Assembly (NCBI GenBank): GCA_964646605.1
Contig: CAZYEX010000137.1
Span: forward strand, 35,580-99,579
Length of the DNA stretch: 64,000 bases
DNA from: an uncultured Phycisphaera sp.
Lineage (GTDB): Bacteria > Planctomycetota > Phycisphaerae > UBA1845
Direction: 5' to 3'
Positions 1 to 18,747 of the stretch are shown one piece after another. Within the stretch, counting starts at the first letter, position 1. Every line of letters begins with the position of its first letter. The translations under genes and the position numbers were made by a program. The notes under the pieces are model-generated. The model did not search any database and had not been told where the DNA came from. It saw only the letters and a list, made by a program, of their open reading frames with translations.

Positions 1-1
1 G

Positions 2-595
2 ACCTACGGCCGCCACGACCGGGCGATCGGGTTCTTCCAACAGCTCGTCAAGGAGCAGCCCGGCGACTGGCGGTCGAAGGTGGAGCTCGGTTGCGCCTAT
101 GTGGACAAGATTCCGACTTGCGGGGGGATGGCCGCGATCGTCAGCAAGGGGACGTTGGCCCGCAAATCCCTCGACCAACTCGATGCGGTGGTCAAGGAGT
201 TGCCCGATCTGTGGGTGGGGTACTACACGCGGGGGATGAACCACCTTCATTGGCCTCGATCGCTGCTTCATTCCGACGACGCAGCCGTAGACCTGGAAAA
301 GTGCCTCGAACTTCAACGGAAACTCCCTTCGGGCGGACGTGAAGCCCATTGGGCTCGGAGCCACCTCGCCTTGGGTGACGCGTACGCCAAGGCGAAAGAG
401 TACAAAAAGGCCCGCAAGACCTGGGACGACGGGTTGCAGCTTTTCCCGGATTCCAAGGAGTTGAAGGAGCGCCTGGCCATCGCCGAAGACGCGGCGCTGC
501 TCAAGTTCGTGGAATCCAAGCGCAGTCTCGAGCAGCCCGTGGACACCGGCCTGGGTTTCCTCGATCGTCCCGCCGAACTCTCCGGATCGAAGTAG
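2..595 (+). CDS. TPR-like helical repeat protein, C-terminal fragment (reading frame open to window start)
   Basis: Frame-2 reading frame has no stop from position 2 to the stop at 593-595. The listed GTG at 80 is internal. TPR-like composition (LALGDAYAKAKEYKKARKTWDDGLQLFP). Confidence 0.45.
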   Translation, partial: TYGRHDRAIGFFQQLVKEQPGDWRSKVELGCAYVDKIPTCGGMAAIVSKGTLARKSLDQLDAVVKELPDLWVGYYTRGMNHLHWPRSLLHSDDAAVDLEKCLELQRKLPSGGREAHWARSHLALGDAYAKAKEYKKARKTWDDGLQLFPDSKELKERLAIAEDAALLKFVESKRSLEQPVDTGLGFLDRPAELSGSK

Positions 596-719
596 TCCGC
601 GGTCCGACGCTTGGCGCGGTTGCACCATGCCCCGCCGCGCCCCCCGCAATAATGCACCTCGCCCGCCGAATCCCTGGATAGTTGTCGAGTTTTGTAAATC
701 GAGGGGATTGTGGTTGACT

Positions 720-765
720 GCCTCCGACAAATGTAGTAGGCTATGTCCGACGGATGTAGGAGGTT
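720..765. promoter_or_regulatory. Putative BlaI-type operator: two direct copies of TCCGAC(A/G)(A/G)ATGTAG, each with an ACA-NN-TGT dyad, about 50-90 bp upstream of the blaI-like start
   Basis: Seen in sequence: cctccgacaaatgtagtaggctatgtccgacggatgtagg. BlaI/MecI operators are TACA/TGTA dyads (established knowledge). Assignment is inferred. Confidence 0.3.
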
Positions 766-813
766 GCGGGCTGGGCCGTCCGGAAGAGCGGAGAGCATCG
801 CGCCGAGGAACGT

Positions 814-1203
814 ATGGCCGAACGACAACACCATGATCTAGGCAGTGCCGAGTTGGAGGTCCTCAAGTCCTTGTGGGAGGTCGGACCGGCCACCGTGCGC
901 GAGGTCCTCGGCCACCTGCACGACCGCGGCCGGATGGTGGCTTATACCACGGTGCAGACCCTGCTCACCCGGCTGGAACTCAAACGCTTCGTAAGCAGCG
1001 ACAAGTCCGATCTCGCCCACGTGTTCCGGGCCCGGGTGTCGCGGGAACGGGTGACGCGGTCGCGGCTGAAGACTCTGGTCGAACAGATGTACGACGGAGC
1101 GGCCGGCCCCTTGGTTCTGCAACTTCTTCGCACGGAGCGGTTAACCCAAGCGGAAATCGAAGAGCTTCAAAAGCTGATCGAGCGGTTAGACGCCCAGGGC
1201 TAA
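814..1203 (+). CDS. blaI: BlaI/MecI/CopY-family winged-helix transcriptional repressor (penicillinase repressor family)
   Basis: 129 aa; N-terminal LSxxELEVLKSLWEVGPATVREVLGHL...MVAYTTVQTLLTRLELKRFV matches the BlaI wHTH; C-terminal coiled-coil dimerisation region. Immediately upstream of an M56 BlaR1 gene. Confidence 0.85.
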   Translation: MAERQHHDLGSAELEVLKSLWEVGPATVREVLGHLHDRGRMVAYTTVQTLLTRLELKRFVSSDKSDLAHVFRARVSRERVTRSRLKTLVEQMYDGAAGPLVLQLLRTERLTQAEIEELQKLIERLDAQG

Positions 1204-1232
1204 GAGGTCTGGGACGGCGAGGGAGATAAGGG

Positions 1233-4184
1233 ATGTCGGAGTGGGTCTCGCAAACAGCCGAAATGCTCTGGCGAAACGGTTTGACCGCCATCCCTTTGGT
1301 GATCCTGACCGCGACGCTGGTCAAGTTCCTCCCCTGCCGCCCGGCGACGCGGCACACCATGTGGCTGGTGGTGCTGGGATGGATGGTCGTGCCTCCGCTG
1401 CTTCCCGATCCGCCGACTCCGCAGTTGGCCACGATCTGGACGGACTTGACCACGCGCGAAGCGAAGCCGCTGGACGCCAACGAATTGTTCGAATCGGTGG
1501 GCGAGGTGCTGGCCTGCGTGGCCCGCACCGTTCCGCCGCAGCCGGTGACCGTTCCGCGGATTGCAACCGAAAGCTTTACCCCACCCTCACCAAGGTCAGC
1601 GGCCCGTCCGATGCTTCGTACGCCGGAAATGCTCGCCCGGGCGACGGGCGTCGGCGGGCCGCTGACCCTGGGAAGTGTTGTACCGAGACGGTCCGGCCTG
1701 TCCACGGGTTCGCCACGCCTGGAATCCACTCTGGGCGAGTTGCGTTCGAGCGTCGATCGACCGATGCCGCGGCCTTCGAGGGTTTCAGGCGAGCGCAGCG
1801 GTCATGCCGCTACCGCCCTCCGTGAGCCGACTGCCCTCGACGTAGACGTGGTACTCGATCCGCCGCAGGTCCTTGAACCGAAAGGCACGGTGGCATCCGT
1901 ATCGCCGCCGACCCGCCATGATCCCCCGCCACTCTTGACCGAAGTGCCTACCGACGTTCCGCTGATCTCGTCGGAGTCGGTTGCGAAACTTGCGGACTCT
2001 CTGCGGCCGCGAACTTCCTTGTGGCCCGAGTCTGGCGATTTGCAGGCCTGGGCCGCGGGTGTGACCGGAGTGCGCGACGCCGTTGTGGAATTGCCGCCCA
2101 TTCCCATCGGCCTTTGGATCGGTGGAACGTTGCTGGTCCTGGCCTTCGGATTGGGGCACGCCCTGCGTTTCCGCCGCCAGTTTCGCCACGCCGTGCCGCC
2201 GCCGTCCTGGGTCGTGGCGATGGTGGACGCGGCGTCGAAAGAGCTCGGACTGCGGCGAGCGCCGCAGACGGTCATGGTCCCAGGGCGTCTGTCGCCCATG
2301 ATCTGGTGTGGACTCAAGCCGCGTCTCATCCTTCCCGCCGCGCTGTGGTCGCGGCTTGGGCGTGCCGGTCAACGGGCCGTGTTGTTCCATGAACTGGCCC
2401 ACGTGCGACGGCGGGACCATTGGGTCTGTTGGATCGAGACGCTGGTGGGGGCTTTGTATTGGTGGCATCCGTTGGTCTGGTGGGCGCGAAAGCGCCTGCA
2501 CGCCGAGGCCGACGACTGCTGCGACGCATGGGTCACGACGCTGCTTCCGCGGACGCGCCGGGCGTATGCCGAGGCGCTGTTGCTGACGAGGCAGTATGTA
2601 GGTGTGGGAAGTCTGCCCGTCCCCGCGACGGGCATGGGAATGGTCACCGGGCGAGCGCGACGTTTCGCAAGGAGATTGACGATGGTCATGACAGGATCGG
2701 TAAAGCCCAGGTTGTCGGTTTCGGGCATGGGGTTGGTGTTGATGTTGGCGACGACGGGTTGGCTTACGTCGCCGGCGCGATCGTGCCCCGAGGAAGAAAA
2801 GGCCAAGGCCGCGGCGCAGGCCAAAGCGGCGCCGTGTGATAAGCCGTGCGCCAAGCCGTGCGAGAAACCGTGCGGCAAGGCTTCGGCGACAGTAGTACCG
2901 ACGCCGGCGCCCGAGGCGGAAGCGAAGAACACCTACGAAACGCATATGGCCGCCAAACTCGCCGCTTTGGCTTCGAGCGTGGCCCCGGCCATCCGCGCCG
3001 CCCCGCTCTATGCCCTCGCCGCCGGTCGTGGAGGCGATGACGACGACGAGGACGATGACCGCATCGCCCGCCTCGAGGAGCGGATGGAGCGAATAGGCGA
3101 GAAGTTGGAGCGGCTCATGGAGGCCATGGAGAACCGGCACAGCGACGGCGAAGGGCACTCGCCGCGCGCCGCCGCACCACGTACGCCGCCACCACCGCGT
3201 GCGCCGACTCCGCCCCATGCACCGCTCCCGCCCATGCCTGCGATGGCGCCCATGCCCCCGATGCCTCCCATGCCGGGTATGGACGCCGAGGCGTTCGGTC
3301 CCGATGGCGGCGAAGTTTCCGCCCGGACGTACAAGTTGTCGAAGGGGAAGCTGGAAGCGCTCATCGCCTTGATGTCGCGCCCGGATGTGCCGGTTCTCAT
3401 CCGCGCCAAGGAGGACGGCATCGAAGTCAATGCCACCCCGCGGCAGCACCGCATTTTCGGAGCCTTCGTGCGGATCATCGATCCGGGCAACGAGTCCGTC
3501 GGGATGGGTCCCGCATCGGGCGACGGCCCGGGCCGTGATCGCCACATGGCCGCGGACATGCGCAGGCACGAAAAAGAGATGGAAAAAGCCGCCAAACGCC
3601 GCTCCAAAGAAATGGAGAAGCGCGAGAAGCGACGTTCCAAAGCCGGAGTGAAGATCGACGAAGCCCGCACCGAGTCCCTCACCAAGTCGCAAATCCAAGA
3701 AGAACTCGCCCAGCAAGCCGAGGCCCTGCGCGAACAGGCGGAAGAGATGAACGAACGGGCCGAGGAGATCCGTGGACGAACCGAGCGGATCGCGGAGCGG
3801 GCCTCGAACCAGAGTGAGCGCGACCGGCGGGCGGAGCTGGAGCGTGAGGCCCTCGCCCTGCGTCACCAAGCCGAGGCGATGGATCAAGAGCGCCAGCATC
3901 TGGAAGAAACAGCGGGCGCTATCGAGGAACGGTCCCACGAGATGGAAGACGAGGCCCGACAGGCCGAGGACCAAATCCGCGACTTGGAAGAGGAATTGCA
4001 GGGTCTGGACGAGGAGTCCGACGACGACGGTGATGACGACGAGCATGCCGCCGCCTACGAGTGGAACGGATTCGGCTCGGAAGTGGTTCCATCGGACGAA
4101 GACGCGCCGGTGATCGAGGAAGTGGACTGGAACGCCGACGAGACGCCCGGCCCCGCTCCGCAGGCGCCCGGTCTCGACGGGTAG
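1233..4184 (+). CDS. BlaR1/MecR1-like M56 zinc-metallopeptidase signal transducer with a very long non-canonical C-terminal region (KPC repeats, Pro-rich, coiled-coil, acidic tail)
   Basis: 983 aa; four N-terminal TM helices; HExxH motif FHELAHVRRRDHW typical of peptidase M56. No penicillin-binding sensor domain recognisable. Instead CDKPCAKPCEKPCGK, PPPPRAPTPPHAPLPPMPAMAPMPPMPPMPGM, long EK/ER-rich coiled coil and a D/E-rich end. Confidence 0.85.
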   Translation: MSEWVSQTAEMLWRNGLTAIPLVILTATLVKFLPCRPATRHTMWLVVLGWMVVPPLLPDPPTPQLATIWTDLTTREAKPLDANELFESVGEVLACVARTVPPQPVTVPRIATESFTPPSPRSAARPMLRTPEMLARATGVGGPLTLGSVVPRRSGLSTGSPRLESTLGELRSSVDRPMPRPSRVSGERSGHAATALREPTALDVDVVLDPPQVLEPKGTVASVSPPTRHDPPPLLTEVPTDVPLISSESVAKLADSLRPRTSLWPESGDLQAWAAGVTGVRDAVVELPPIPIGLWIGGTLLVLAFGLGHALRFRRQFRHAVPPPSWVVAMVDAASKELGLRRAPQTVMVPGRLSPMIWCGLKPRLILPAALWSRLGRAGQRAVLFHELAHVRRRDHWVCWIETLVGALYWWHPLVWWARKRLHAEADDCCDAWVTTLLPRTRRAYAEALLLTRQYVGVGSLPVPATGMGMVTGRARRFARRLTMVMTGSVKPRLSVSGMGLVLMLATTGWLTSPARSCPEEEKAKAAAQAKAAPCDKPCAKPCEKPCGKASATVVPTPAPEAEAKNTYETHMAAKLAALASSVAPAIRAAPLYALAAGRGGDDDDEDDDRIARLEERMERIGEKLERLMEAMENRHSDGEGHSPRAAAPRTPPPPRAPTPPHAPLPPMPAMAPMPPMPPMPGMDAEAFGPDGGEVSARTYKLSKGKLEALIALMSRPDVPVLIRAKEDGIEVNATPRQHRIFGAFVRIIDPGNESVGMGPASGDGPGRDRHMAADMRRHEKEMEKAAKRRSKEMEKREKRRSKAGVKIDEARTESLTKSQIQEELAQQAEALREQAEEMNERAEEIRGRTERIAERASNQSERDRRAELEREALALRHQAEAMDQERQHLEETAGAIEERSHEMEDEARQAEDQIRDLEEELQGLDEESDDDGDDDEHAAAYEWNGFGSEVVPSDEDAPVIEEVDWNADETPGPAPQAPGLDG

Positions 4185-4323
4185 TTCGGTCGTTCGCAGT
4201 AGTCATTCCTAGAGGGATTTACGAAACCGCCGCGGCGCGGCGTTCAGAGGGGTCATGGACCCCACGGCGGAGAGGGTGCGCTCCCACAATCCGCGAGTAC
4301 CTATGTTGATGAGATGTTCCATC

Positions 4324-7300
4324 ATGACACAGTCGCAGAAGGGCGGTCGAGCCTGGCTCGGTTTGCAGGTCGGTGCGTTGTCCGCGGCCCTGGTGGTCGG
4401 CATCGGTGCGGCGCATTCGGCGCCAGAGTCGCCCGCCGCACAACCCGATCCCGCGCTTCGCTTGTACCTCAGCGGCAATGGGTTGCTCAACCGCGGTCTG
4501 TATGACCTTGCGGCCGCGGAGTATCGCAAGTTTCTCGCTTCGCACGCCGACCACGAAAAGGCCGCCATCGCCCGCTACGGACTGGCTGTCAGCCTCTTCC
4601 GTCTCAACAAGTTGCCGGAGGCGGCAAGCGAATTGGCGCCGCTGCTGAACCTCGCGGACTTCCCCTATGCCGCGGAAGCCTGGACGATGGTCGGCCAGTG
4701 TCGTCTTGCCGGACGAGACTATGGTTCCGCCGCGGACGCATTTCAGACGGTGCTGCAACGCCACGGGGAGCACGAACTCGCCGATGACGCCGCCCAAGGG
4801 GCGGTCGAGGCGCTCTATCTCATGGACCGATTCGATCATGCCGCCGACGGCGCTCGGGAGTTCGTCGCCCGATGGCCGCAGAGCCCCCTGCACGAGCGGG
4901 TTCTATACTTCTGGGCCCTCGCCGAAGTCGGGCGGAAGAATGACCCCGCGGCAATCGACCGGTTCGAGGAACTCATTCAGCGCCATCCGTCCGGCGCCTT
5001 CGTCGAATCGGGAACCATCCTCCTGGCGCAGTGTTATCACCGCGGCAATGTACTCGATCGCGCCGTGACGAGTTATCGAACGGTACTCGAACAAGGCGGG
5101 CGATATGTAGCGGACGCTCTGGCGGGACTGGGTTCCATTCATTTTCAACGCAATGAACTGCAGGATGCCGGGGCGGCGCTGGATCGCCTGATCGGCGAAT
5201 TCGGCGACGGTCCCGATGCAGTCCAAGCGCGATTGCAACGCGGCCGAGTATGGTTCGAACAAGGCGAGTGGGATCGCGCGGCGGACGGGTTCCGATTGTT
5301 GGAAAACTCCTGCGCCGAGCGCTGCGACGAAGCGATGTATTGGCTAGCCAAGTGCGAACTGCGCAAGGGCGATGCCACGTCTGCGGCGGCGCGGCTCGCG
5401 GACGCCGTCCGTCGGTTCCCCCAGAGTTCCCTGCTGGCTGAGATGGTATACGACCGCGCCGTTGCACTGTCACGTGCAGGTGACAACGACGGCGCCGTCG
5501 GCCAATGGGCGGAGTTCTGCGAGCGGTTCCCCACTCACGCGCTGCACCGCGACGCCCTGTACGCGTTAGCAACGACGCAACATCGGCTCGGCCGCTACGA
5601 TAGAAGTGACGCCCTCTGCGAAGCATTCTTGTCGCAATACGCGGACGACGAACGAGTGCCCGAAACCCTGTTCCTTTCGGCGGAGAATCTCTTTCTGAGC
5701 AGCCAATTGCCTGCCGCGATTACGAAGTATTCCTCATTCCTGGGGACGTTCCCCAATCACACATTCGCCGGACGCGCGAAACTGCGACTGGGACTCGCCC
5801 ATTACCAGCTCGAGCAGTTTGCCGAGGCAAGGAAGGTTCTTTCGGAGGTAGCGCAATCCGCTCCGCGGGACTCCGTTTTCGCGCCGGCACTTCTCGCGCT
5901 TGGGGATGTACATTTCCAGAACGGAGAGTGGGAACAGGCTCAACTGCGGCTAGGCGAGTATTTCGACTTGGGACTCGGCATTGCGGCGAGGGACGATGCA
6001 CTGCTCAAGATCGCATTGTCTCAGGAGCGCCGCGACCAACACGAACCGGCGCTCGCCTCGTTGGATCGATTGATCGCGGAGTTTCCCGACAGTCCCCATC
6101 GCCTTCAGGCACAGTTCGAACGCGGACAGTGTATGGCTGCGCTGCAGAGATGGGACGACGCCCAGACGGCGTTTGAGATGGTTTTGGAATCGAGTGAGAA
6201 TTCTCGCTTCGCGGCGCCGGCCGTGAGGCATCTGGCCGCGATCGCCGGTCGACGTGAGCGTCCGCAGGCGGCGGCGGCATGGTATGAACGTCTGGCCGAA
6301 AAGGCGGAGAACGATTCATCCCGTGCGGATGCCATGTTCCAGCAGTTCCTTGCCCTTGCCGCGGCAGAACAGTTCGAGGCGGCGGCGACAGCCATACAAC
6401 AGTTCATCGAGCGGTTTCCCCATGACATCCGGCATGGGGAGGCCCGGGCTCGTCGAGTCATCGCGTTGGCACGAATGGATCGATGCGACGAGGTCGTCGC
6501 CGCGGCTTCCCAGCTCGACGAGACGACGCTCGACGCACTGCCCCCGGAGCTACGTACGGCCTTTCTCTATGAACGTGCCTGGTGTCTTCGCGCACTAGGT
6601 CGAACCGACGACGCCGCTCAGGCGTATCGGCGCGTTCTGTCGGAACCGTCGCCGGGATCGTACGGTTTTCACGCCATGCTGGAGCTTGCCGAGCTTGAGT
6701 GCGGCGCGAAGCGCTACGAACCGGCCGCCAATCTCCTGCGCCAACTTCGGACCGCTCTGGACAGTCGGGCTGACGAAGGGTCCGCGAATCTGCGCGAAAA
6801 TTGCCTGTATCGACTTGGCGCCTGCGAACTGCAGTTGGGGCGCTATGCCGAGGCCGCCGAATGTTTCGACGCTTTCGTAACCTCGCACCCCGGAAGCTCA
6901 TTGATTGCCTTTGCGAGCTTTCATGGCGGAGACGCAAACCTCAAAGCCGGTCGGTATGAACGGGCCGTTTCCCACTTCACGCGCATCGTAAAGGAATTCA
7001 AAGACCACGAAGTCTTGGGACCCACACTGCTCCGACTGGGCGAATGTCTGGCCCTCATGCAGCGCTGGGCAACCAGTGAACAGACTTTCGCCGCCTATCT
7101 CGACCGCTTCCCGCAAGGCGAACAGGCATACCAAGCCCAATTCGGAATGGGATGGGCGCGGGAGAATCAGCAACGCTACACTGAGGCCATCGCCGCCTAT
7201 GAGCAGGTCGTCGCCGCGCAACAAGGTCCCACGGCCGCACGGGCTCAATTCCAGATCGGCCAGTGTTACTTCGCGGAGGAGAGGTTCGAGGAGGCCGTGC

Positions 7301-7518
7301 GCGAGTTGCTCAAGGTGGACATCCTCTATGCATACCCGGAATGGAGCGCGGCGGCGCTATACGAGGCCGGGCGCTGCTTCGAGCGGATCGGAAAAACGGC
7401 GGAGGCGCAGAGTCAGTTTCAACAGATTGGGCAAAAGTACGCTCAAACTCAATGGGCCGAGCTTGCGGCCAAGCAACTGTCCGATCTGTCGTCGCGTGTT
7501 GCCATACCCGGACGCTGA
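4324..7518 (+). CDS. Large secreted TPR-repeat protein (about 1065 aa)
   Basis: Signal-peptide-like N-terminus (MTQSQKGGRAWLGLQVGALSAALVVGIGAAHS) followed by many 34-aa TPR-like units (W..G.C....Y..A...F......). The ORF track start is 4255; M at 4324 was chosen by signal-peptide logic, so the start is uncertain. Confidence 0.7.
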   Translation: MTQSQKGGRAWLGLQVGALSAALVVGIGAAHSAPESPAAQPDPALRLYLSGNGLLNRGLYDLAAAEYRKFLASHADHEKAAIARYGLAVSLFRLNKLPEAASELAPLLNLADFPYAAEAWTMVGQCRLAGRDYGSAADAFQTVLQRHGEHELADDAAQGAVEALYLMDRFDHAADGAREFVARWPQSPLHERVLYFWALAEVGRKNDPAAIDRFEELIQRHPSGAFVESGTILLAQCYHRGNVLDRAVTSYRTVLEQGGRYVADALAGLGSIHFQRNELQDAGAALDRLIGEFGDGPDAVQARLQRGRVWFEQGEWDRAADGFRLLENSCAERCDEAMYWLAKCELRKGDATSAAARLADAVRRFPQSSLLAEMVYDRAVALSRAGDNDGAVGQWAEFCERFPTHALHRDALYALATTQHRLGRYDRSDALCEAFLSQYADDERVPETLFLSAENLFLSSQLPAAITKYSSFLGTFPNHTFAGRAKLRLGLAHYQLEQFAEARKVLSEVAQSAPRDSVFAPALLALGDVHFQNGEWEQAQLRLGEYFDLGLGIAARDDALLKIALSQERRDQHEPALASLDRLIAEFPDSPHRLQAQFERGQCMAALQRWDDAQTAFEMVLESSENSRFAAPAVRHLAAIAGRRERPQAAAAWYERLAEKAENDSSRADAMFQQFLALAAAEQFEAAATAIQQFIERFPHDIRHGEARARRVIALARMDRCDEVVAAASQLDETTLDALPPELRTAFLYERAWCLRALGRTDDAAQAYRRVLSEPSPGSYGFHAMLELAELECGAKRYEPAANLLRQLRTALDSRADEGSANLRENCLYRLGACELQLGRYAEAAECFDAFVTSHPGSSLIAFASFHGGDANLKAGRYERAVSHFTRIVKEFKDHEVLGPTLLRLGECLALMQRWATSEQTFAAYLDRFPQGEQAYQAQFGMGWARENQQRYTEAIAAYEQVVAAQQGPTAARAQFQIGQCYFAEERFEEAVRELLKVDILYAYPEWSAAALYEAGRCFERIGKTAEAQSQFQQIGQKYAQTQWAELAAKQLSDLSSRVAIPGR

Positions 7519-7569
7519 AGGAAGGTAGTTCAGCCGACCGGCGGACTGTAGCACAGGGGAGTATGCTCG

Positions 7570-8394
7570 ATGGGAAGCACAGAAATGCAATCATTGTTTT
7601 CCAGTCTGGTGAGTTTGTTCGTCGCTCAAGCAGACAGTGCAGCGTCGGCGTCGAGTTCCGTGAAGGTCGAGTCGGTTTGGGACTTCGTGGTCAAGGGCGG
7701 ACCGGTGATGATTCCCATCGGAATATGTTCCTTCGCGGCACTCACCATTATCGTCGAGCGGCTCGTTTCACTTCGTCGGCGGAATGTCATTCCGCGGGAG
7801 TTCATTGGCCGCATCAGCGAACTGCTCGAGGATGGAAATGGCGGGGGCGAGAAGGCGTACGAACACTGTCGCAGAAACGGAAGTCCCATCGCTCTCGTGT
7901 TTGCCGATGGAATCAAACGCCTGGGTGAACCGATCGAGTTGTTGGAACGCCACATACAAGAGGCCGGCGAACGAGCGGTCGAAAAGCTGCGTAAGCACTT
8001 GCGGCTTCTATCCGTCATCGCTTCCGTGGCGCCGCTTCTGGGACTGTTGGGCACGATCACGGGAATGATCACGGCGTTCCAGACCGTGGCCAGCGCGGCG
8101 GAGGCGCTGGGGCGCACGGAATTGCTCGCCAAAGGCATCTACGAGGCCATGATCACCACGGCCGCGGGTTTGATGGTCGCCATTCCCACCCTCGTCGCCT
8201 ATCACGGCATCTCCGCCAGAGTGGATACGTTGGTGGGGGAAATGGATCGCATGGCCGTGGAGTTCATCGAGAAATACGCCTCCGGAACCGCTCGGCTTGC
8301 CCCGGTGTCATTGCCAGCGCCGCGGCGTATCAGTGAAGTACAGTCATCACCAAGCGACGACGGACGCGCCGCCGTTGCGGCCCTCGCGGGTTGA
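7570..8394 (+). CDS. exbB: MotA/TolQ/ExbB-family proton-channel protein
   Basis: 274 aa; three TM segments; conserved C-terminal motif LLGLLGTITGMITAFQTVA...ELLAKGIYEAMITTAAGLMVAIPTLVAY typical of the TolQ/ExbB family. Confidence 0.85.
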   Translation: MGSTEMQSLFSSLVSLFVAQADSAASASSSVKVESVWDFVVKGGPVMIPIGICSFAALTIIVERLVSLRRRNVIPREFIGRISELLEDGNGGGEKAYEHCRRNGSPIALVFADGIKRLGEPIELLERHIQEAGERAVEKLRKHLRLLSVIASVAPLLGLLGTITGMITAFQTVASAAEALGRTELLAKGIYEAMITTAAGLMVAIPTLVAYHGISARVDTLVGEMDRMAVEFIEKYASGTARLAPVSLPAPRRISEVQSSPSDDGRAAVAALAG

Positions 8395-8439
8395 CGTCGA
8401 TCCATTCTGATTTCCAAACGCGGAGGACACGAGGCTTTC

Positions 8440-8853
8440 ATGCGTATCAAACCTGCCACGACGGCGATCGACGTTGGGATTGACCTGACCCCAGTCATAG
8501 ATATGGTGTTTTTATTGCTGATCTTTTTTCTCGTCGCCACGACATTCCATCAATCGGAACGAGAAATGCAAATCGCGTTGCCCATTGCGGGCAACACGGC
8601 GCCGATCACCACGCTCTTGAAAGAACTGGTTGTGAATGTGGACCAAGGCGGCCAAATCATCGTCTCGGGCCGCCGGCTTTCCAAAGATGATTTTCAGGGC
8701 ATGGTCAATGCGGCCGTAACGGCGAATCGTGAACAGAAAGTGACCATCCGCGGGGATCGCGGCACGGCATACGAGAACGTGGTCGCCGTACTCGACATTT
8801 GTAAGGGGTCGGGGATTCAAGAGCCGTATCTCGACACGGTTCTGGAAAAGTAG
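8440..8853 (+). CDS. exbD: ExbD/TolR-family biopolymer transport protein
   Basis: 137 aa; N-terminal single TM (LTPVIDMVFLLLIFFLV) and a periplasmic domain with the ExbD/TolR fold signature; follows exbB by 45 bp. Confidence 0.85.
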   Translation: MRIKPATTAIDVGIDLTPVIDMVFLLLIFFLVATTFHQSEREMQIALPIAGNTAPITTLLKELVVNVDQGGQIIVSGRRLSKDDFQGMVNAAVTANREQKVTIRGDRGTAYENVVAVLDICKGSGIQEPYLDTVLEK

Positions 8854-8907
8854 TCGAGGCGCGGCAATGTCGGAGTTCATCATACCGAACGCACGGGCGG
8901 TTTTCGC

Positions 8908-11900
8908 GTGAAACGAGCGTTTGTCATCATGGTCATCGTCCTCGGCGCCGCCATTGGCGGGGCCGCATTGTGGCACTTTTGGCCGAGGGCGGTCGCTTTC
9001 TACACCGACGCGGAGTCCATCCGCGAGCCGCTGGCGACCGCCTCGCCAAGAGACATTCTCTGGCAACCCCCCGTCGTCCTAACATCTCCGCTTAACTCGA
9101 CGGACGACGACTACGAACCTCGACTCAGCAATGACGGTTTGACGTTGTACTTTGTTCGAGGCAAGGCCGGGCACAATGCGGAGTTGTTCTTCGCTCGCCG
9201 GACACCGGACGGATGGAGCGATCCGCAACCTCAGACGGAGTTAAATTCCCCTTTCGACGACCTGGGCCCCGAACCGTCCGCCGACGGCGAGACGATGTAT
9301 TTCTACAGCAATCGCGACGGCGGACTTGGCGGGTATGACCTGTGGTTGTCGCGGCGCGGACACAATGGATGGCAGACGCCGCTTAACCTCGGCCCGGCGA
9401 TTAATTCAGAGTTCAATGACTACGGGCCCGCGATCACACCCGACGGCAGTGTGCTGTACTTTGCATCCAACCGCCCCCAACCGACGGACACCCACACTCC
9501 TGATCCCAACGCCTGGCCGGCAACGCTGCGGGAAGACCTCTTCCGCCGCACGTACGATCTTTACCGATCTTCGGTAACGCAGAGCGGTTTTACACACGCC
9601 GAGCCCCTGTCGGCATTGAACACCATTCATCACGAAGGATCGCCGGCCGTCAGTCCCTTCGGAGACTTTCTCTACTTCGCGTCCGACCGACCGGCGGGAC
9701 GCGGCGGCTTCGACATGTACCGTTGCCGCAGACTGCGAGGACAACTGGGACTGGCGGAGAATCTCGGACAGACGGTCAACACGGACGGAAATGAACTGGA
9801 TCCTGCCCTCAGCTTGGGTGGGTACCGGCTCTATTTCAGTTCGGATCGCATTGCAGCCGGCGGTGTGCCAGGCGCCTCGCGAGATTACAACCTGTACCAG
9901 ACCACCTCACGAGAGGTCTTCTCCGAGCTCGAAGTGCAGCCTCGGTCCTCGATCGACTGGGCTGCACTGTGGAAGGCGGCGGCGCCGAATCTACTGTTTG
10001 CACTCTTGGCGTTGCTCCTCTTGCTGTTGTTGCTGTGGTTGTTTCGCGGAATGCAAGGCCGCAGGTTGAGCCTATTGGCGAAGTGTGTGTTGGGGTCTCT
10101 GGCAGCCCATCTCCTTCTCATGTTGCTTTTCAACGTATGGGAAGTGGCGGCGTCGTTGGCGGGCACGCTTTCACACGGTCGGCAAGGTTCGATCCAGGTG
10201 GCCATTGCGTCGCCCGGGACCAGCGGTTCTCTTTTTAGTCAAATCCGCGAGCACCTAACGTCCGTGGACGTTGCGAATGTCTCTCCGGCGCCCGAACGCG
10301 CCCCTTCGCTGTTGCAGTCGCATGTGGAGGAGTATTCGGCGCAAATACCCGTCAACGGGACGGCCCTAGAGGCAATGCACACAATACAATCGACCACGCC
10401 GCCGTCGGATGCCACCGTCCATCATGAGCGAATGCTCCCCAGCGCAACACCGCCGATCGAGTTTCCTTTGAGCGCCACGGCATTGACCTTTCCGCACTTG
10501 CCTGTGTCGCAGGCGCAACGCGAGGCGGATGTGGCGCCGCATATCGTTCGAGAAGCGCCGACGAAACTGATTCGCGTGGCACACATCCCCTCGGACCTGC
10601 AACCTGTCTCGGTCGTCACGGAATTTGCCCCCATCCGCGCGCCGACCGATGCACTTCCCTCTGCGGTACGGAGTGTAGTCGCCGAGCCCGTGGTCGGCGA
10701 CGCGGTGATTCGACCCGAAGTGATGCGCGAGCCAATGCAGATTGCGCGGACAGCTCAGGCGGCGCCGCCGATGGCGACGCAATTGGGCGTTGAACTTGGA
10801 CTTCCGCGGGAATCGACTGTACCACCGTCTACCAGTGAAGAGCACCAGTCTCGCGCGACTGGGGCAGCTCCTGTTTCGTCGACGCGAGCCGCGATGGATA
10901 TTCCCCCCATAGCGGATACCGCAGTGCAATCGGTTCAACTCCAGCCCGGCAAGCACGGGTCCCAGGCTGCGCCTTCGTCCCTTGCCGCTTTGGAGTCCCT
11001 TGCCGGCGGTGATTCCCCGACTGCTGCGCCATGGCCCGCTGGTTTCGCACTTAGCGCCGCAGGATGGATTCCGGCCCCGGCGGCATCGTCCTTCACGCCA
11101 AATCTCGAAACGCAGAGCGCGCTCCCTCACGCGGAGGGGGAGCGCCCGCCGTTCGGGGAAAACACTGCTTCGCCCCGCGCTCAGATGTTCACCGATCGCG
11201 GACCGGCCGGAAGGTTCTCCGATTTTCGGGAACGCGTTTCACCTCAGAGAAGCGACAATGTACTAGGCGTCGCGGGAAGTCTCGCGCCGTCCGTGCGGGC
11301 TCTAGACCTCCTTGTCTCGGGTGATCCGTCGTTACCCGATCGCGCCGTTCCGACCCCGGTGGCCGTCGCCACACACCGTGAACTTCAGTTGGCCCTTCCG
11401 GCGGAAGAGAGTGCCCCGGAAAATCCGTATGTGCAGCGAAACTCCGAGGCGCGGATGGACATTGTGGAGCGCATGGGAGGCAGTGCCGAAACCGAGCAGG
11501 CCGTCACCACAGCCCTTCAATGGCTCGCCTCTCATCAAAGCCGCGACGGACGATGGGACGCCGACGGGTTTGACCGCGGCTGCGGCGCGTGCGGCGGCGT
11601 CACATCCGTCGCAGCCGATCACGCCCTGACGGGCCTGAGTCTGCTATGTTTTCTGGGTGCCGGGCATACACACCAAAAAGACGGGCCCTATCGTGACGCG
11701 GTGCAACGCGCTCTGACCTGGCTCCTTTCTCAGCAGCGGCGCGACGGCGATCTTCGCGGTGAGGAAACCATGTACAGTCACGGCATTGCGACTCTCGCAC
11801 TATCCGAGGCCTATGGTATGACCGGCGACTTCAGAGTACGCGACGCCGTGCAGAGAGCCGCGGACTTCATTGACCAGGCACGCAACCAGACGGTAGGCGG

Positions 11901-13173
11901 TTGGCGATATGATCCGGGGCAGTCGGGTGATACCTCGGTACTGGGCTGGCAAGTCATGGCCCTGCGCAGTGCGTCCCTTAACGGTTGCCGCGTATCCCCC
12001 GAAAACTTTGGCAGCGCAAGAGTGTGGCTGCACCGTGTCAGCGATCGCGGGCACGCGGGCAGGTATTCGTATCAACCCGGCCGCAAGCCAACCCCAAGCA
12101 TGACGGCCGAGGGCATGTTCGTGCAGCAGTTGCTCGGAATGGCGCCCGCACACCCCGCCATGCAGGGATCCGTCAAGTACATACTGCAAAATCTTCCGAA
12201 CTGGCAGTCTCAGCCCAATACATACTTTTGGTATTATGCTTCCCTGGCGTTGTTTCAACAGCAAGGCGAAGCGTGGGAGCGATGGAACGAGTCACTTCGC
12301 GGTCAATTGACGTCCCATCAACGAAAGGACGGGCGAGCGGCGGGCAGTTGGGACCCTGTCGGCGAATGGGCGGACGTCGGCGGTCGGGTATACCAGACCG
12401 CTCTTTGTACACTGATGCTCGAAGTCTACTATCGCTATTTGCCGCTTTTCTCCGCTGGTGCGCCGAAACTGGAGTGGACTGAAAAACCGGCGATCGAATC
12501 GATCGGAACGATTCATGGAACGGTGACGGACTCCGCGACAGCGCGACCGCTCCGCAGCGCCACAGTCCGACTGGACCTACCGGACGGCGCGGCTGTTACA
12601 GCAACCACCGAACCCGACGGAAGTTATGTACTCGATGCGCCGAATGTGCCGGAATTCTTCGCCCTCTCGGCCTCTCACGACGGATTCATTCCCCGAAGCG
12701 CAAACGCGGAGCGGGCACAACTGATAGACGGAACACTGCGGGTGAACTTTGCGCTCGATTCGGTGCATGCGGATGTGCTGGTTATGGAAGCCGTCCCCGA
12801 TGTCCATCACCTGGGAGACGACCATTTCGACGGCACGATCAATAGCCAATTCCAAAAGCGCTCCGAGGGTGCCAGTTTCGCCGGAGCGTTCGAATTGGGC
12901 GTGGATCGGCGGCCCGCACAGTTCACCCGCGGCGAGGTGCGCTTGCTCGCCAAGGGCGTACAGAGGCGGCATCGCATTGTCATCAACGGCAAGACCCTCG
13001 ATCGGCGACTGGATCACGCCCCCGAAGACGGGAGCTTCGGCGAGTTCGCCGCCCCCTTCGACGCCTCCCAACTCCTCAGCGGCGCGAACACCCTGGAGAT
13101 CATCGCCGCCCCCAGCACTTCCGACATTGACGACTTCGAGTTCGTCAATGTGCAGATCCACCTGCACCCATGA
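8908..13173 (+). CDS. Giant multidomain envelope protein: N-terminal TM, TolB-like PD40 beta-propeller repeats, TM pair, about 400-aa low-complexity linker, prenyltransferase/squalene-cyclase-like alpha-alpha toroid repeats, carboxypeptidase-regulatory-like domain, C-terminal domain
   Basis: 1421 aa. PD40-type repeats (YEPRLSNDGLTLYF, GPEPSADGETMYFYSNRDGGLGGYDLWL, YGPAITPDGSVLYFASNRP, SPFGDFLYFASDRPAGRGGFDMYR). Poly-Leu TM helices. QW-like toroid motifs (LQWLASHQSRDGRW, LTWLLSQQRRDGDL, GGWRYDPG). GTVTDSATARPLRSATVRLDLPDG...TEPDGSYVL resembles a CarbopepD_reg domain. Confidence 0.75.
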   Translation: MKRAFVIMVIVLGAAIGGAALWHFWPRAVAFYTDAESIREPLATASPRDILWQPPVVLTSPLNSTDDDYEPRLSNDGLTLYFVRGKAGHNAELFFARRTPDGWSDPQPQTELNSPFDDLGPEPSADGETMYFYSNRDGGLGGYDLWLSRRGHNGWQTPLNLGPAINSEFNDYGPAITPDGSVLYFASNRPQPTDTHTPDPNAWPATLREDLFRRTYDLYRSSVTQSGFTHAEPLSALNTIHHEGSPAVSPFGDFLYFASDRPAGRGGFDMYRCRRLRGQLGLAENLGQTVNTDGNELDPALSLGGYRLYFSSDRIAAGGVPGASRDYNLYQTTSREVFSELEVQPRSSIDWAALWKAAAPNLLFALLALLLLLLLLWLFRGMQGRRLSLLAKCVLGSLAAHLLLMLLFNVWEVAASLAGTLSHGRQGSIQVAIASPGTSGSLFSQIREHLTSVDVANVSPAPERAPSLLQSHVEEYSAQIPVNGTALEAMHTIQSTTPPSDATVHHERMLPSATPPIEFPLSATALTFPHLPVSQAQREADVAPHIVREAPTKLIRVAHIPSDLQPVSVVTEFAPIRAPTDALPSAVRSVVAEPVVGDAVIRPEVMREPMQIARTAQAAPPMATQLGVELGLPRESTVPPSTSEEHQSRATGAAPVSSTRAAMDIPPIADTAVQSVQLQPGKHGSQAAPSSLAALESLAGGDSPTAAPWPAGFALSAAGWIPAPAASSFTPNLETQSALPHAEGERPPFGENTASPRAQMFTDRGPAGRFSDFRERVSPQRSDNVLGVAGSLAPSVRALDLLVSGDPSLPDRAVPTPVAVATHRELQLALPAEESAPENPYVQRNSEARMDIVERMGGSAETEQAVTTALQWLASHQSRDGRWDADGFDRGCGACGGVTSVAADHALTGLSLLCFLGAGHTHQKDGPYRDAVQRALTWLLSQQRRDGDLRGEETMYSHGIATLALSEAYGMTGDFRVRDAVQRAADFIDQARNQTVGGWRYDPGQSGDTSVLGWQVMALRSASLNGCRVSPENFGSARVWLHRVSDRGHAGRYSYQPGRKPTPSMTAEGMFVQQLLGMAPAHPAMQGSVKYILQNLPNWQSQPNTYFWYYASLALFQQQGEAWERWNESLRGQLTSHQRKDGRAAGSWDPVGEWADVGGRVYQTALCTLMLEVYYRYLPLFSAGAPKLEWTEKPAIESIGTIHGTVTDSATARPLRSATVRLDLPDGAAVTATTEPDGSYVLDAPNVPEFFALSASHDGFIPRSANAERAQLIDGTLRVNFALDSVHADVLVMEAVPDVHHLGDDHFDGTINSQFQKRSEGASFAGAFELGVDRRPAQFTRGEVRLLAKGVQRRHRIVINGKTLDRRLDHAPEDGSFGEFAAPFDASQLLSGANTLEIIAAPSTSDIDDFEFVNVQIHLHP

Positions 13174-13194
13174 CCCACATGGGTTGGATGACGG

Positions 13195-13998
13195 TCAAGG
13201 TTCCTGGGGCGTTGGGCACTCGCCCTCGCCGGAGATGCTCGCCCCCGCCCCAGCGGCTTGACAGGCATTGCCATACGTTACGGCGTCGCAGCCGCACACC
13301 GGGGCGAATTCAAGCGTGCATACCTGGGGAATCGGTTCGCACAGTCCCTGGATATCGCAGCAACACTGCCCCATCGGCAGATGGCAGTATTCACCATCCT
13401 CACACCCAATCCCCACGATTCCGCCGCAGACGCGCCCTGCGTCGGCGCACTCACCCGCGCCTAGCACGCTGATCGACGCGCGATCGGCCTCGCACTCGTT
13501 GGGATAGGTAATCTCGTCGCATCCACAGACCGGTGCGAACACTTCGGCGCAGACTTCGGGAACGGACACACACACGCCGGTCTGATCGGCGGCCCCGCAT
13601 GTCCCCGTCGTATACTTGCAGGACTCTGACGCGGGGCAGGCGAATCCCGCCAATCCGCCGCACGGTTTTTGTTCATCGTCGGTCGGACACGCGCCTTCAC
13701 TCCGCACACTAACGCCCACGACGGCCGCCTCGCATGCATTGCCGTAGGTCGCTCCGTCGCACCCGCACACGGGCGCGAAAATCTCGGCGCAAGAGTCAGG
13801 CCGCTGCGCACAAGCACCCGAAGCCCCATCGTCCCCACAACTCCCTTCGTCATAGAGACAATACAGCCCCTCGCCGCAGAGCAGGGCGGCCAGTCCACCG
13901 CACGAGACCCCCACGATCCCGCATCCAGAGAGCCAACCCAGTTGACTGCAAACGAACAGAACTGCCGCAGGTTTCATACCGAGCCAGGTTCTTTTCAT
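13195..13998 (-). CDS. Secreted lipoprotein with four tandem Kazal-type serine-protease-inhibitor domains
   Basis: Start chosen at MKRTWLGMKPAAVLFVCSQLGWLSGCG (signal peptide plus lipobox). Four repeats of the Kazal core CxxxFAPVCGCDGxTYxNxCxA. The ORF track's longer 5' extension (to 14199) lacks any signal. Confidence 0.75.
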   Translation of the reverse strand: MKRTWLGMKPAAVLFVCSQLGWLSGCGIVGVSCGGLAALLCGEGLYCLYDEGSCGDDGASGACAQRPDSCAEIFAPVCGCDGATYGNACEAAVVGVSVRSEGACPTDDEQKPCGGLAGFACPASESCKYTTGTCGAADQTGVCVSVPEVCAEVFAPVCGCDEITYPNECEADRASISVLGAGECADAGRVCGGIVGIGCEDGEYCHLPMGQCCCDIQGLCEPIPQVCTLEFAPVCGCDAVTYGNACQAAGAGASISGEGECPTPQEP

Positions 13999-14173
13999 TT
14001 TCACGTTACGCTCCGAACAAAATCTCGCCCGCCGCGGTTGGCGGACACGGTCTCTTGCCATCGACAATAGTATAGACGCACCCAAGCGTCCGCCAAGACG
14101 CAGACGCGGGCAAGGCGATTCCTGATGTTTCACTCGTACCGAAGGAAGCGTCCAGGGGCAAAAACTCGCGGCC

Positions 14174-15628: not shown

Positions 15629-15856
15629 AAACCCCTCGGCATCCATGTATCGTCTTGCGTCGCCACGCCCACCCGAACCCGCAGCGCATGCGGCAGGCCC
15701 TTCATGAATGGTCCTACAGTTCGTGGAACTCGTCAAGCCGAACGGCTGGGCAAGCCCCCATCCCCACGTCGAGGACCAGAAATGAGCGACCCTCGTTCCT
15801 CACGCCGCGTGGGCGTACGAAACGAGGGTCGTTTCTCTCGGGGGTCGGGCGACGAT

Positions 15857-17885: not shown

Positions 17886-18097
17886 TGGGTCGGCACGCCC
17901 GGGTCGGCAGCGCGCCGACCCCCGTTCCGAAGCCGTCGCTTTCAGGCGGCGGGTCACGCCCTGCCGATCGTGCGTGCAAGCATGGGCCATGCCCTTTTCA
18001 GACCGACAGAACCGAGGTATGCTTATGTAACGGACAACGGATTGGGTAGTATGTTTCAGCGATTCATCGCACCTTCCACACCGCGGCGAGCGAACCG

Positions 18098-18598
18098 ATG
18101 ATGTCTCGGGAAGCTACGACGGCCTCACGCTGGGTCTCAGCCGTGGCTCTCGTAGTCGTCTCTCTTCCCGCCGCATGTAAACACCAAGATTCGGGAAAGA
18201 TAGGCACGGAACTCTCTTCGGAATCGTGCTGCGCTCTCCCGTCCAGAGTGGTTGCGATTACTTTCACAGGCGACGTCAAGAAGGACGTTGCTCTGCCATT
18301 GGAAGTCGCTCTTCCGGTGCTGCGACGAAATCTCACGCTGGAGAACCGGACCAATCATAGGTCCAAGTTTTGCCCCGCTGGGACCATTTGGGTGCATGGC
18401 CAATCGGCGTCGAGCGAGTATAAACTCCTGGAGGCTCCTACGTACCTTGTTTGCAGACGATGTGGGACGTTTTTTAAGATGGACTACGACGATCAAACGC
18501 GGCTTCTGGATCTCGCCGCGGAGGTCCAGGGCGGACGGCTATCCTCCACCATTCCGTACCCCGGATCTCGTCCTCGTAAGGATCCCAACAAGAAATGA
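18098..18598 (+). CDS. Hypothetical lipoprotein with CxxC pair; locally lower GC than surroundings
   Basis: MMSREATTASRWVSAVALVVVSLPAAC (signal plus lipobox-like); CRRC motif; GC visibly lower (about 55%) than neighbouring genes. Confidence 0.4.
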   Translation: MMSREATTASRWVSAVALVVVSLPAACKHQDSGKIGTELSSESCCALPSRVVAITFTGDVKKDVALPLEVALPVLRRNLTLENRTNHRSKFCPAGTIWVHGQSASSEYKLLEAPTYLVCRRCGTFFKMDYDDQTRLLDLAAEVQGGRLSSTIPYPGSRPRKDPNKK

Positions 18599-18747
18599 GG
18601 CCCGGAAGAGGTGCCAAGATGACTTTTGTGCCTCACCTCGCCCAGGGGTATGGATACCCCGAGGCGTGCCGTTGACTTGTGACCGTTGCGATCACTCCCC
18701 AGTCCCAAACCGCAAATCGGCAATTCAGTTGGCTTCCGCAGGTCGCG

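Follow-up and report, generated by a model that had tools for sequence, protein, structure and literature searches.

Which genes does a BlaI-type repressor control when the M56 protease encoded beside it has no penicillin sensor and the genes that follow encode an ExbB/ExbD-type motor? The question is raised by a stretch of 64,000 nucleotides (hereafter, the window) from an uncultured Phycisphaera sp. (assembly GCA_964646605.1, contig CAZYEX010000137.1, positions 35,580 to 99,579), in which six open reading frames (ORFs) lie head-to-tail on the plus strand, in the order blaI, M56 protease, tetratricopeptide repeat (TPR) protein, exbB, exbD and a gene for a giant protein of 1421 residues. The explanation that we favor, with moderate confidence, is that these six genes form a single operon for a BlaI/M56-regulated envelope machine driven by the proton-motive force. 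The genes are as follows:

814–1203 (+): blaI-type winged-helix repressor, 129 residues (Penicillinase_R, E 1.6e-29)
1233–4184 (+): M56 membrane metalloprotease with a periplasmic half that is not a penicillin-binding protein (PBP) domain, 983 residues (Peptidase_M56, E 2.9e-27)
4255–7518 (+): giant periplasmic TPR protein, 1087 residues (1064 residues from the ATG at 4324) (TPR_6, E 3e-77)
7570–8394 (+): ExbB/TolQ-type stator subunit, 274 residues (MotA_ExbB, E 7.5e-30)
8440–8853 (+): ExbD/TolR-type stator subunit, 137 residues, with the transmembrane (TM) Asp21 at 8500–8502 (ExbD, E 3.5e-25)
8908–13173 (+): giant protein, 1421 residues, putative non-canonical force transducer (homologues in at least 588 species)

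The intergenic gaps are, in order, 29, 70 (139 if the TPR gene starts at 4324), 51, 45 and 54 bp. An earlier annotation of the window (the original prediction) had described six co-directional genes separated by short gaps, and our ORF listing recovered its coordinates and gap lengths exactly. The domain names that it had proposed for a profile search were each recovered with Pfam and NCBIfam, and the motifs that it quoted (HELAH, KPC repeats, a proline tract, EK/ER helices and an acidic tail) are all present in the translation. Its treatment of the six genes as one unit agrees with the neighborhood comparison by tblastn, in which the gene order is conserved across related loci. For the TPR gene, the ATG at 4324 is a more likely start than position 4255; it yields a signal peptide ending in AHS/A, and the L001 gene call for this gene starts at the equivalent position. 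The giant gene starts at 8929 in the public gene calls.

The first step in answering the question is the DNA upstream of blaI, which contains a promoter-like sequence and two palindromes:

714–742 (+): promoter-like TTGACT (714–719), 17-bp spacer, TAGGCT (737–742), read from the sequence
722–739 (no strand assigned): operator 1, CTCCGACAAATGTAGTAG, palindromic over 18 bp and of the BlaI/CopY TACAnnTGTA type (14/14 consensus matches)
745–762 (no strand assigned): operator 2, GTCCGACGGATGTAGGAG, 23 bp downstream of operator 1 (13/14 consensus matches)

The 18-bp operator consensus, CTMCGAC-RNNT-GTAGKAG, was obtained from aligned regions upstream of blaI, and sites were scored at the 14 positions of CTMCGAC-N4-GTAGKAG. 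Operator 1 starts right after TTGACT and overlaps the -10 element TAGGCT, and operator 2 is located where transcription would start. In the alignment of upstream regions, the TTGAC just 5' of the first operator recurs in most of the related loci; the TTGACT/TAGGCT promoter is not among the matches of a generic promoter scan. We found exactly two operator sites in the whole window, compared to 0.18 per shuffle. The related loci (1.4 Mb) contain 76 sites, 68 of them no more than 300 bp upstream of blaI, versus 2 sites in one shuffle of the same 1.4 Mb. At least one operator was found in all of the informative blaI loci (37/37), and a pair of operators, with a modal spacing of 23 bp, in 31 of these 37. 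A kACrnnTGTa core and an arrangement as two operators are characteristic of BlaI, MecI and CopY (PMC7253601), and paired palindromes of the TACA/TGTA type are present here, as putative operators, in the repressor's own promoter. It should be noted that ACA-NN-TGT dyads had been predicted upstream of blaI. BlaI-type operators are indeed located there; however, the dyad is only the inner part of the 18-bp palindrome, and in the second copy this inner part, ACG-GA-TGT, departs from ACA-NN-TGT.

Does this control extend to the motor genes? The most informative cases are the eight operator sites that fall outside the class located upstream of blaI: two in L032, one in L073 and five in loci without blaI-M56. 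The two operators of L032 are upstream of blaI, close to the edge of the locus, and the single operator of L073 looks like a chance match. Among the loci without blaI-M56, L048 (contig 58 of the metagenome-assembled genome (MAG) GCA_016235815.1) has two operators directly upstream of the TPR gene of a cassette with no linked blaI-M56, L041 has one operator before the TPR gene, and L049 has TTTGAC and two operators, followed by a stand-alone gene for the periplasmic module and then by the cassette. In the same MAG as L048, blaI-M56 with its own operator pair is found on contig 39 (L086), unlinked to the L048 cassette. Because the unlinked repressor gene and the cassette of one MAG carry the same operators, the cassette appears to belong to the BlaI regulon, and this is the strongest available evidence for its membership. 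Thus, the proposal that a BlaI-type repressor controls the ExbBD cassette is supported by operators that immediately precede the TPR gene when blaI-M56 is located elsewhere in the genome (L048/L086, L041, L049), and we consider the regulatory link itself to be likely. In the window, the gap between the M56 and TPR genes contains no operator, no terminator and no unusual RNA structure (structure z -0.44), as would be expected if transcription reads through from the blaI promoter. Scans for intrinsic terminators and for unusual structures found none in the operon gaps, and terminator-like and promoter-like matches are no more numerous than in shuffled sequences.

We also compared the repressor and the protease with the proteins after which they are named. 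Penicillinase_R (PF03965) spans residues 9–123 of the BlaI protein, which correspond to profile positions 1–114 of 115, a full-length match; the protein scores below the cut-offs of all three NCBIfam models, BlaI, MecI and CopY. It is a member of the Penicillinase_R family and not one of the named BlaI, MecI or CopY proteins. The protease was modelled using AlphaFold2 (AF2) with 40 homologues, with a mean predicted local distance difference test score (pLDDT) of 69 (core >90). The model has the order TM1, TM2, a disordered loop of ~230 residues, TM3, protease domain and TM4 (residues 496–512). The features of this protein are:

1410–2102 (+): disordered Pro/Ser/Arg-rich loop between TM2 and TM3, residues ~60–290 (pLDDT <50 at residues 95–265; poorly conserved)
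2103–2768 (+): M56 core, with TM3, HELAH protease domain (2388–2402), conserved GRARRFARRLTMVMT and TM4 (pLDDT mostly >90)
2835–2879 (+): CDKPCAKPCEKPCGK repeats, residues 535–549 (from the translation; mostly gap columns in the family alignment)
3186–3281 (+): proline-rich tract, residues 652–683 (a Pro-rich stretch is found here in most homologues; disordered in the AF2 model)
3318–3479 (+): small beta-alpha-beta-beta-alpha domain, residues 696–749 (pLDDT 81–91; Y700, D718, P720 and F745 invariant)
3537–4064 (+): antiparallel helical hairpin, helices 769–859 and 863–944 (AF2 pLDDT >90), followed by the acidic tail to 4181

The Peptidase_M56 (PF05569) match covers residues 294–460 only. HELAH corresponds to residues 386–390, and H386, E387, H390 and E425 are invariant in the 40 homologues; Foldseek aligned the AF2 model to the TM and zinc-protease domain of Staphylococcus aureus BlaR1 (8exp, 8exr) with an E-value of 3e-6. 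The assignment of an M56 protein with an HExxH core and four TM helices is thus upheld by Pfam, by the fold of BlaR1 and by invariant catalytic residues. The loop between TM2 and TM3 is likely to be periplasmic, by analogy with loop L2 of BlaR1. With the NCBIfam model blaR1_generic, the protein reaches 65.6 bits (cut-off, 400), and the match is limited to model positions 105–266 of 585. No penicillin-binding sensor was found in Pfam, NCBIfam or fold searches, in agreement with the predicted absence of a beta-lactam-sensing domain.

If the topology is that of BlaR1, the part after TM4 lies in the periplasm. It consists, in order, of an 'SCP' motif with the invariant Cys518, the KPC repeats, a helix (604–637), the proline tract, the small domain, the hairpin and the acidic tail. 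The AF2 model of this half has helices and a 55-residue alpha/beta domain where BlaR1 has its penicillin-binding domain; the acidic tail is disordered, and the hairpin is estimated to be ~13 nm long. For residues 521–983 there was no match to Transpeptidase or to any other Pfam family, even at E≤10, and a PDB profile search and Foldseek returned only coiled-coil noise; a known sensor domain, which would have spoken against the original prediction, was not found in any of these searches. The KPC repeats are present, as claimed; however, they are a local peculiarity, since the region consists mostly of gaps in the family alignment. We observed that CDKPCAKPCEKPCGK contains four Cys at a period of four residues and occurs only in the window sequence and its closest relatives; these Cys could bind metal or form periplasmic disulfides. 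A phmmer search with the small domain over the full library (1.84 billion proteins) yielded 486 cluster representatives, with 1–6 tandem copies, in M56 fusions and in shorter stand-alone proteins. This beta-alpha-beta-beta-alpha domain of ~55 residues has no Pfam model and is a candidate new domain family. A secretin-N or ring-building motif was also considered for it; the order of its elements fits that fold class, but there is no sequence or fold match, and we do not claim this assignment.

The origin of the periplasmic half is suggested by the stand-alone proteins. Two intact stand-alone modules (P0248 and P0255) start with a lipoprotein-type signal peptide (PLLAC-PP and PLWAC-PP), and this signal, with its lipobox Cys, aligns with TM4 and the 'SCP' motif of the M56 fusions (residues 496–519, window 2718–2789). 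Therefore, either the protease was joined to a lipoprotein, or the lipoprotein arose by loss of the protease. In L049 (positions 3690–5461), a stand-alone module gene, frameshifted in the assembly, occupies the usual place of blaI-M56, behind the operators and before the cassette, which suggests that the periplasmic half is a self-contained module accompanying the machine, with the protease as an add-on. The C-terminal half had been read as a sensor for a signal other than a beta-lactam. No known sensor domain is present; however, it is probably more than a sensor, namely, a lipoprotein-derived module that can be kept without the protease (L049, P0248, P0255).

The genes that follow encode a motor. 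MotA_ExbB and ExbD/TolR domains are encoded side by side, and Asp21 in the TM helix of ExbD, the proton-carrying position, is located in LTPVIDMVFLLLIFF and is conserved in 67/67 loci. The best NCBIfam scores for the ExbB-type subunit are 92.6 bits for TolQ (2.9e-26; cut-off 221) and 53 bits for ExbB (cut-off 206), and those for the ExbD-type subunit are 60.4 bits for TolR (2.7e-16; cut-off 127) and 45.8 bits for ExbD (cut-off 153). By these cut-offs, the two proteins fall in neither the Tol nor the Ton equivalog class. In the ExbB-type subunit, the Pro on TM3 is kept, as read from the sequences. The 1087-residue protein matches many TPR families of Pfam, and the tol_pal_ybgF/CpoB model matches it in 12 stretches (305 bits, 2.4e-92).

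The giant protein is the likely force transducer, because it contains a TM helix with the Ser-x3-His pattern of TonB and TolA, followed by a long linker. Its order is TM1 (~5–25), PD40 propeller, TM2 (~361–379), a short Arg-rich loop, TM3 (389–411), linker and head:

9025–9927 (+): PD40 beta-propeller, residues ~40–340, between TM1 and TM2 (PD40 x5, E 3.7e-32; strongly conserved)
10072–10140 (+): TM3, residues 389–411, with Ser397-x3-His401 (S-x3-H in 120/120 homologues)
10165–11397 (+): Pro/Ala/Ser-rich linker, ~410–420 residues, variable and disordered (unconserved apart from scattered Pro)
11443–12450 (+): (alpha/alpha)6 toroid with QW-like motifs
12505–13170 (+): CarboxypepD_reg-like sandwich (CRD; residues ~1200–1292; Pfam E 1.5e-08) and C-terminal sandwich resembling a carbohydrate-binding module (CBM; residues ~1300–1420)

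In Escherichia coli, the structurally conserved contact to ExbB is made by Ser16/His20 of TonB, and that to TolQ by Ser18/His22 of TolA (PMC12215075). The Ser-x3-His is also found in the distant Verrucomicrobiota loci L066 and L081, where little else of TM3 is kept. TM3 is predicted to run from cytoplasm to periplasm (N-in, C-out), the same as in TonB, and the topology of the propeller was deduced from the positive-inside rule. Taken together, we regard a role of the giant protein as transducer as probable. The original prediction of an ExbBD-driven machine was correct as to the motor domains and the domains of the giant protein; however, it had missed the protein's own Ser-x3-His helix and linker. 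Its TolB-like propeller is present as five PD40 repeats, but since a TM helix on either side keeps it at the inner membrane, this propeller cannot shuttle like TolB. The toroid that it proposed exists as well, although as a generic (alpha/alpha)6 barrel, with SQHop_cyclase_C (6e-05, 22.7 bits) just under its gathering score. A weak match of the linker to TolA domain II (E 0.004) was judged compositional and rejected.

The head is well predicted (mean pLDDT 85), and Foldseek aligned its model to the PL4 rhamnogalacturonan lyase 1nkg (E 6e-10, ~295 aligned columns). We take the aligned part of 1nkg to be its two C-terminal domains, one Fn3-like and one CBM-like, which would correspond to the last two sandwiches in the head. 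The terminal CBM-like sandwich has conserved HHLGDD, DGSFGEF and DIDDFEFVN. There was no Pfam or NCBIfam match to TonB_C or TolA domain III in the giant protein, and no match to a TolB family, including the N-terminal domain, in the same libraries, only PD40 repeats. In L084 (positions 17623–20592), an otherwise complete six-gene operon encodes a homologue of 989 residues that lacks the toroid and keeps everything else; thus, the constant parts are the propeller, the Ser-His helix, the linker, the CRD and the CBM-like end.

To assess conservation, we scanned one genome per GTDB species, obtained at least 588 confirmed matches to the giant protein and retrieved 79 loci, the neighborhoods of which were compared by tblastn with the six window proteins. 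More than 700 proteins of similar length are related to the M56 protein, and more than 700 proteins to the giant protein; almost all of these come from MAGs of Planctomycetota/Phycisphaerae, and none is named beyond a domain label. TPR, ExbB and ExbD genes are located upstream of the giant gene in 47/48 loci with at least 5 kb of upstream DNA, including Verrucomicrobiota L066 and L081, which suggests that the four-gene core is an ancient module. BlaI and M56 are directly upstream in 32/43 loci with at least 8.6 kb of upstream DNA. For example, L002 has kept all six genes at 43% M56 identity, with completely different flanking genes. Judging from these comparisons, the attachment of blaI-M56 has been stable in a large clade of Phycisphaerae, and the neighborhood conservation sought in other Planctomycetota was found for both parts of the operon. 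A full-text literature search found no description of this cassette.

Two of the retrieved loci have additional features. In L004 (positions 9586–14419 of CP070827.1), there is an orthologous BlaI-M56 pair that also has these two operators, and the place of the cassette behind it is taken by a PD40/Tricorn_N protein of 346 residues; the cassette of CP070827.1 (L019) is 3 Mb away from it, and the DNA around its TPR start is masked by N. In L048, a Bat-like operon (positions 77–5323), judged from sequences alone, is located directly upstream of the operator-TPR-ExbBD-giant cassette, with genes for two von Willebrand factor A (vWA) proteins, a TPR protein, a BatD-like protein and an SH3-like protein.

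The favored model can be described as follows. Domain content, gene order, operators, motor residues and the S-x3-H motif were directly observed in the sequences; we infer from them the cleavage of BlaI by M56, docking of TM3 on ExbB, co-transcription, the type of signal and the cellular role. A dimeric BlaI-type repressor would bind both palindromes, covering the -10 element and the transcription start. The M56 protein would not sense beta-lactams; its cytoplasm-facing zinc protease would cleave BlaI when the periplasmic module changes state, probably inactivating the repressor as in BlaI/BlaR1, and the six genes would be derepressed. The cut would be expected close to LVLQ/LL in the C-terminal helix of BlaI, in analogy to Asn101-Phe102 of the S. 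aureus repressor. This lipoprotein-derived module may be physically part of the machine and may report the state of the machine or of the envelope. ExbB and ExbD would form a 5:2 stator (ExbB5-ExbD2), on which the giant protein would dock via Ser397-x3-His401 of TM3, as TonB and TolA do, so that the pull would pass along the flexible linker of ~410 residues to the toroid, CRD and CBM-like head. The head probably holds a glycan or an outer-membrane partner, and the CpoB-like TPR protein of 1087 residues would serve as a periplasmic scaffold. The planctomycetal periplasm is wide, and the long linker and the hairpin may suit it. To our knowledge, Phycisphaerae have no FtsZ. Among cellular roles, we prefer outer-membrane tethering or constriction of the Tol-Pal kind, followed by polysaccharide capture and then by surface motility or adhesion.

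A bolder version of this model is, in our view, rather unlikely. The system would be a new class of periplasm-spanning machine powered by the proton-motive force and specific to the Planctomycetes-Verrucomicrobia-Chlamydiae (PVC) superphylum, in which a three-TM transducer combines a propeller similar to that of TolB and a Ser-His helix similar to that of TonB with a glycan-binding head, and which either replaces Tol-Pal in FtsZ-less Phycisphaerae or powers polysaccharide capture into an enlarged periplasm. The M56 protein would be wired to it mechanically: its hairpin arm would dock, and engagement or tension would lead to BlaI cleavage. If true, this would be a force- or assembly-feedback loop made from an antibiotic-sensor chassis.

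Several observations weigh against the model of a regulated, force-transducing machine. Binding of BlaI, cleavage of BlaI and expression of the operon are all predicted. The exact operator counts are somewhat circular because the scoring rule was built from the same sequences, although the location specificity of the sites and the shuffle control are not affected by this. In 11/43 loci, there is no blaI-M56 within 10 kb (in one of them, L016, it is probably further upstream), and no recognizable operator was found in L010, L015, L046 and the Verrucomicrobiota-type loci L066, L071, L072 and L081. Because several loci without blaI-M56 have no operator, BlaI control seems to be clade-specific and not intrinsic to the cassette. 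On the side of the motor, TM1 of the ExbB-type subunit keeps the Ser, not the Trp, of the Ser-x3-Trp contact network of E. coli, as read from the sequences; in the giant protein, it is the third TM helix that carries the S-x3-H, rather than an N-terminal one; and Phe408 and Glu412 are found where the full SHLS motif has Leu and Ser. The toroid is dispensable (L084), and the head has no assignable ligand.

Other explanations should be compared to this model. The six genes may be two independent neighbors, with the BlaI/M56 pair autoregulated for itself or for distant targets and the cassette merely adjacent, with its own promoter. This is what would be expected from the four-gene core without blaI-M56 (11/43 loci, and Verrucomicrobiota) and from the orthologous pair beside a PD40 protein elsewhere in CP070827.1 (L004), and the M56-TPR gap of 70–139 bp is roomy enough for a promoter. 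However, that gap has no terminator or operator, operators are directly upstream of the TPR gene where blaI-M56 is unlinked (L048/L086, L041), the periplasmic module accompanies the cassette even in the absence of the protease (L049), and adjacency is kept in 32/43 loci across 30–60% identity while the flanks change; we consider independence improbable. It is slightly less probable still that the M56 protein is itself a TonB-like transducer, in which ExbBD pulls the Pro-rich/coiled-coil arm and thereby switches the protease on, the giant protein being a substrate-binding or glycan-processing partner. M56-TonB fusions do exist (Bacteroides thetaiotaomicron TonB1 and TonB10, 10.1101/2023.07.07.548152), the Pro-rich tract and the long rigid hairpin are TonB- or TolA-like in style, and the gene adjacency fits. 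Conversely, the M56 protein contains no TonB_C or TolA domain (Pfam, E≤10 for the C-terminal half), its TM4 has no conserved Ser-x3-His (His is found in only 16 of 91 TM4 segments), and the motor and the S-x3-H giant protein are kept where M56 is absent. Furthermore, the stand-alone modules have a cleavable lipoprotein signal in place of TM4, which is incompatible with docking on a stator.

A very divergent true Tol-Pal system, with TolQ and TolR, a giant protein that fuses TolB and TolA, and an expanded CpoB, would serve outer-membrane constriction in FtsZ-less Phycisphaerae. The best NCBIfam matches are of this type (TolQ, TolR and the 12 stretches of tol_pal_ybgF), the propeller and the order TPR/tolQ/tolR/propeller recall tol-pal, and Tol-Pal is reported to be strongly reduced in Planctomycetes (PMC8871954). 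On the other hand, all Tol equivalog cut-offs are missed except for the repeat-driven YbgF score, a Pal/OmpA-like gene is missing from the cassette, as are TolA domain III and any match to the TolB N-terminal domain, and the propeller is anchored in the inner membrane by its flanks on either side. We regard a strict form of this explanation as doubtful; it should be noted that it overlaps with the favored model and is not an exclusive rival. The system resembles Tol-Pal and Ton but belongs to neither of them. The idea of an ordinary beta-lactam resistance sensor (BlaR1/MecR1) acting on genes nearby has only the BlaI and M56 domain names in its favor. The penicillin-binding sensor domain is lacking, the C-terminal architecture in the AF2 model is different, and Pfam detected no beta-lactamase or PBP2a gene within the operon; this extremely improbable explanation is ruled out by domain content.

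The comparison to described systems leads to a similar placement. BlaI/BlaR1 (MecI/MecR1) share with the window a Penicillinase_R repressor beside a four-TM M56 zinc protease with HExxH and the BlaR1 fold (8exp), and two palindromic operators of the TACAnnTGTA type, here 18 bp long, in their own promoter. In contrast to BlaR1, loop L2 is here expanded to ~230 disordered residues, the PBP domain is replaced by a module of ~470 residues (helix, Pro tract, new small domain, hairpin and acidic tail), which also occurs as a free lipoprotein-like protein, and the genes predicted to be under control encode an ExbBD motor cassette instead of resistance proteins. Atypical BlaIR pairs without a sensor have been reported, namely, Rv1846c/Rv1845c of Mycobacterium tuberculosis, a pair in Mycobacterium abscessus and PvmSR of Pseudomonas aeruginosa (bioRxiv 10.64898/2026.08.03.742534). 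They also lack a PBP sensor, but their periplasmic part is absent, whereas here there is a module of ~470 residues. M56-TonB fusions (TonB1, TonB10) likewise have M56 N-terminal to a Pro-rich arm that spans the periplasm, and ExbBD-type energization; the window protein differs in having no TonB C-terminal domain, no S-x3-H in its last TM helix and an arm that ends in a helical hairpin. A motor cassette like the present one is linked neither to the BlaIR pairs nor to the M56-TonB fusions.

The closest described precedent is the group of SHLS-helix transducers with a vWA head, encoded beside TPR-tolQ-tolR-tolR in the PVC superphylum (Mol Biol Evol 2025, PMC12204202). Common to both, and found in Planctomycetes and Verrucomicrobia, are a TPR gene, a tolQ-/tolR-like motor and a membrane protein in which a Ser/His TM helix is followed by a disordered linker and a head other than TonB_C. 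In the window, however, the head consists of toroid, CRD and CBM-like domains, there is one tolR-like gene instead of two, an extra N-terminal TM helix and a PD40 propeller precede the S-x3-H, the linker is ~4 times longer, and there is a predicted BlaI/M56 control, which is not reported for the vWA clusters. TonB and TolA have an extended middle region, as does the giant protein (~410 residues), which differs in lacking a beta-strand-addition C-terminal domain. Tol-Pal (TolQRA, TolB, Pal, CpoB) shares the TolQ/TolR-like motor, CpoB-like TPR repeats and a PD40 propeller; here, by contrast, the propeller is anchored in the inner membrane, and there is no Pal/OmpA_C, TolA domain III or detectable TolB N-terminal domain. 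A Pal/OmpA-like product was found neither among the six products (Pfam) nor among the flanking Kazal, M20 and TPR/FG-GAP genes, the rest of the genome not being included in this search. PorE, the CpoB-TolB-CRD-Pal fusion of Bacteroidota, combines TPR, PD40 propeller and CRD, all of which are present here, and the propeller matches PorE at 1e-40 and CHU_0125 at 1e-36. These matches cover the propeller only, with 137.7 bits against a cut-off of 600 and 126 against 620, respectively, and the window has no OmpA_C and is not a single lipoprotein.

Outside the operon, the 3' end adjoins a convergent gene (13195–14199, - strand), which is followed by another (14174–15736, - strand); they encode a protein with three Kazal repeats and an M20 peptidase. 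Kazal-type protease-inhibitor domains are uncommon among bacteria. On the other side, window positions 1–595 (+) are the end of a gene for a 510-residue FG-GAP/UnbV_ASPIC/TPR protein (L001 gene calls), the adjacency of which to the operon is not kept in other loci. An Rfam scan detected no RNA element in the operon region. Elsewhere in the window, it gave gathering-score matches to a group II intron domain (RF00029, 54.7 bits) at 24326–24399 (+) and, ~200 bp from it on the opposite strand, to a bacterial small signal recognition particle RNA (RF00169, 53 bits) at 24602–24699 (-).

No single element of this system is categorically new; the system is widespread, unannotated and internally coherent, and all of its parts are currently annotated as hypothetical or by domain name only. 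If the model is correct, the giant protein represents the second documented head type among non-canonical force transducers coupled to ExbBD/TolQR, and the first with a dedicated regulatory circuit. A BlaI/BlaR1 chassis, known mainly from antibiotic resistance, would then be used widely in an environmental phylum (more than 700 such M56 clusters) for an envelope machine. The operator, the Ser-His helix and the Asp of ExbD provide direct experimental handles. These results point to a candidate for coupling between the inner membrane and the outer envelope in Planctomycetota, a phylum with reduced Tol-Pal, no FtsZ and a wide periplasm.

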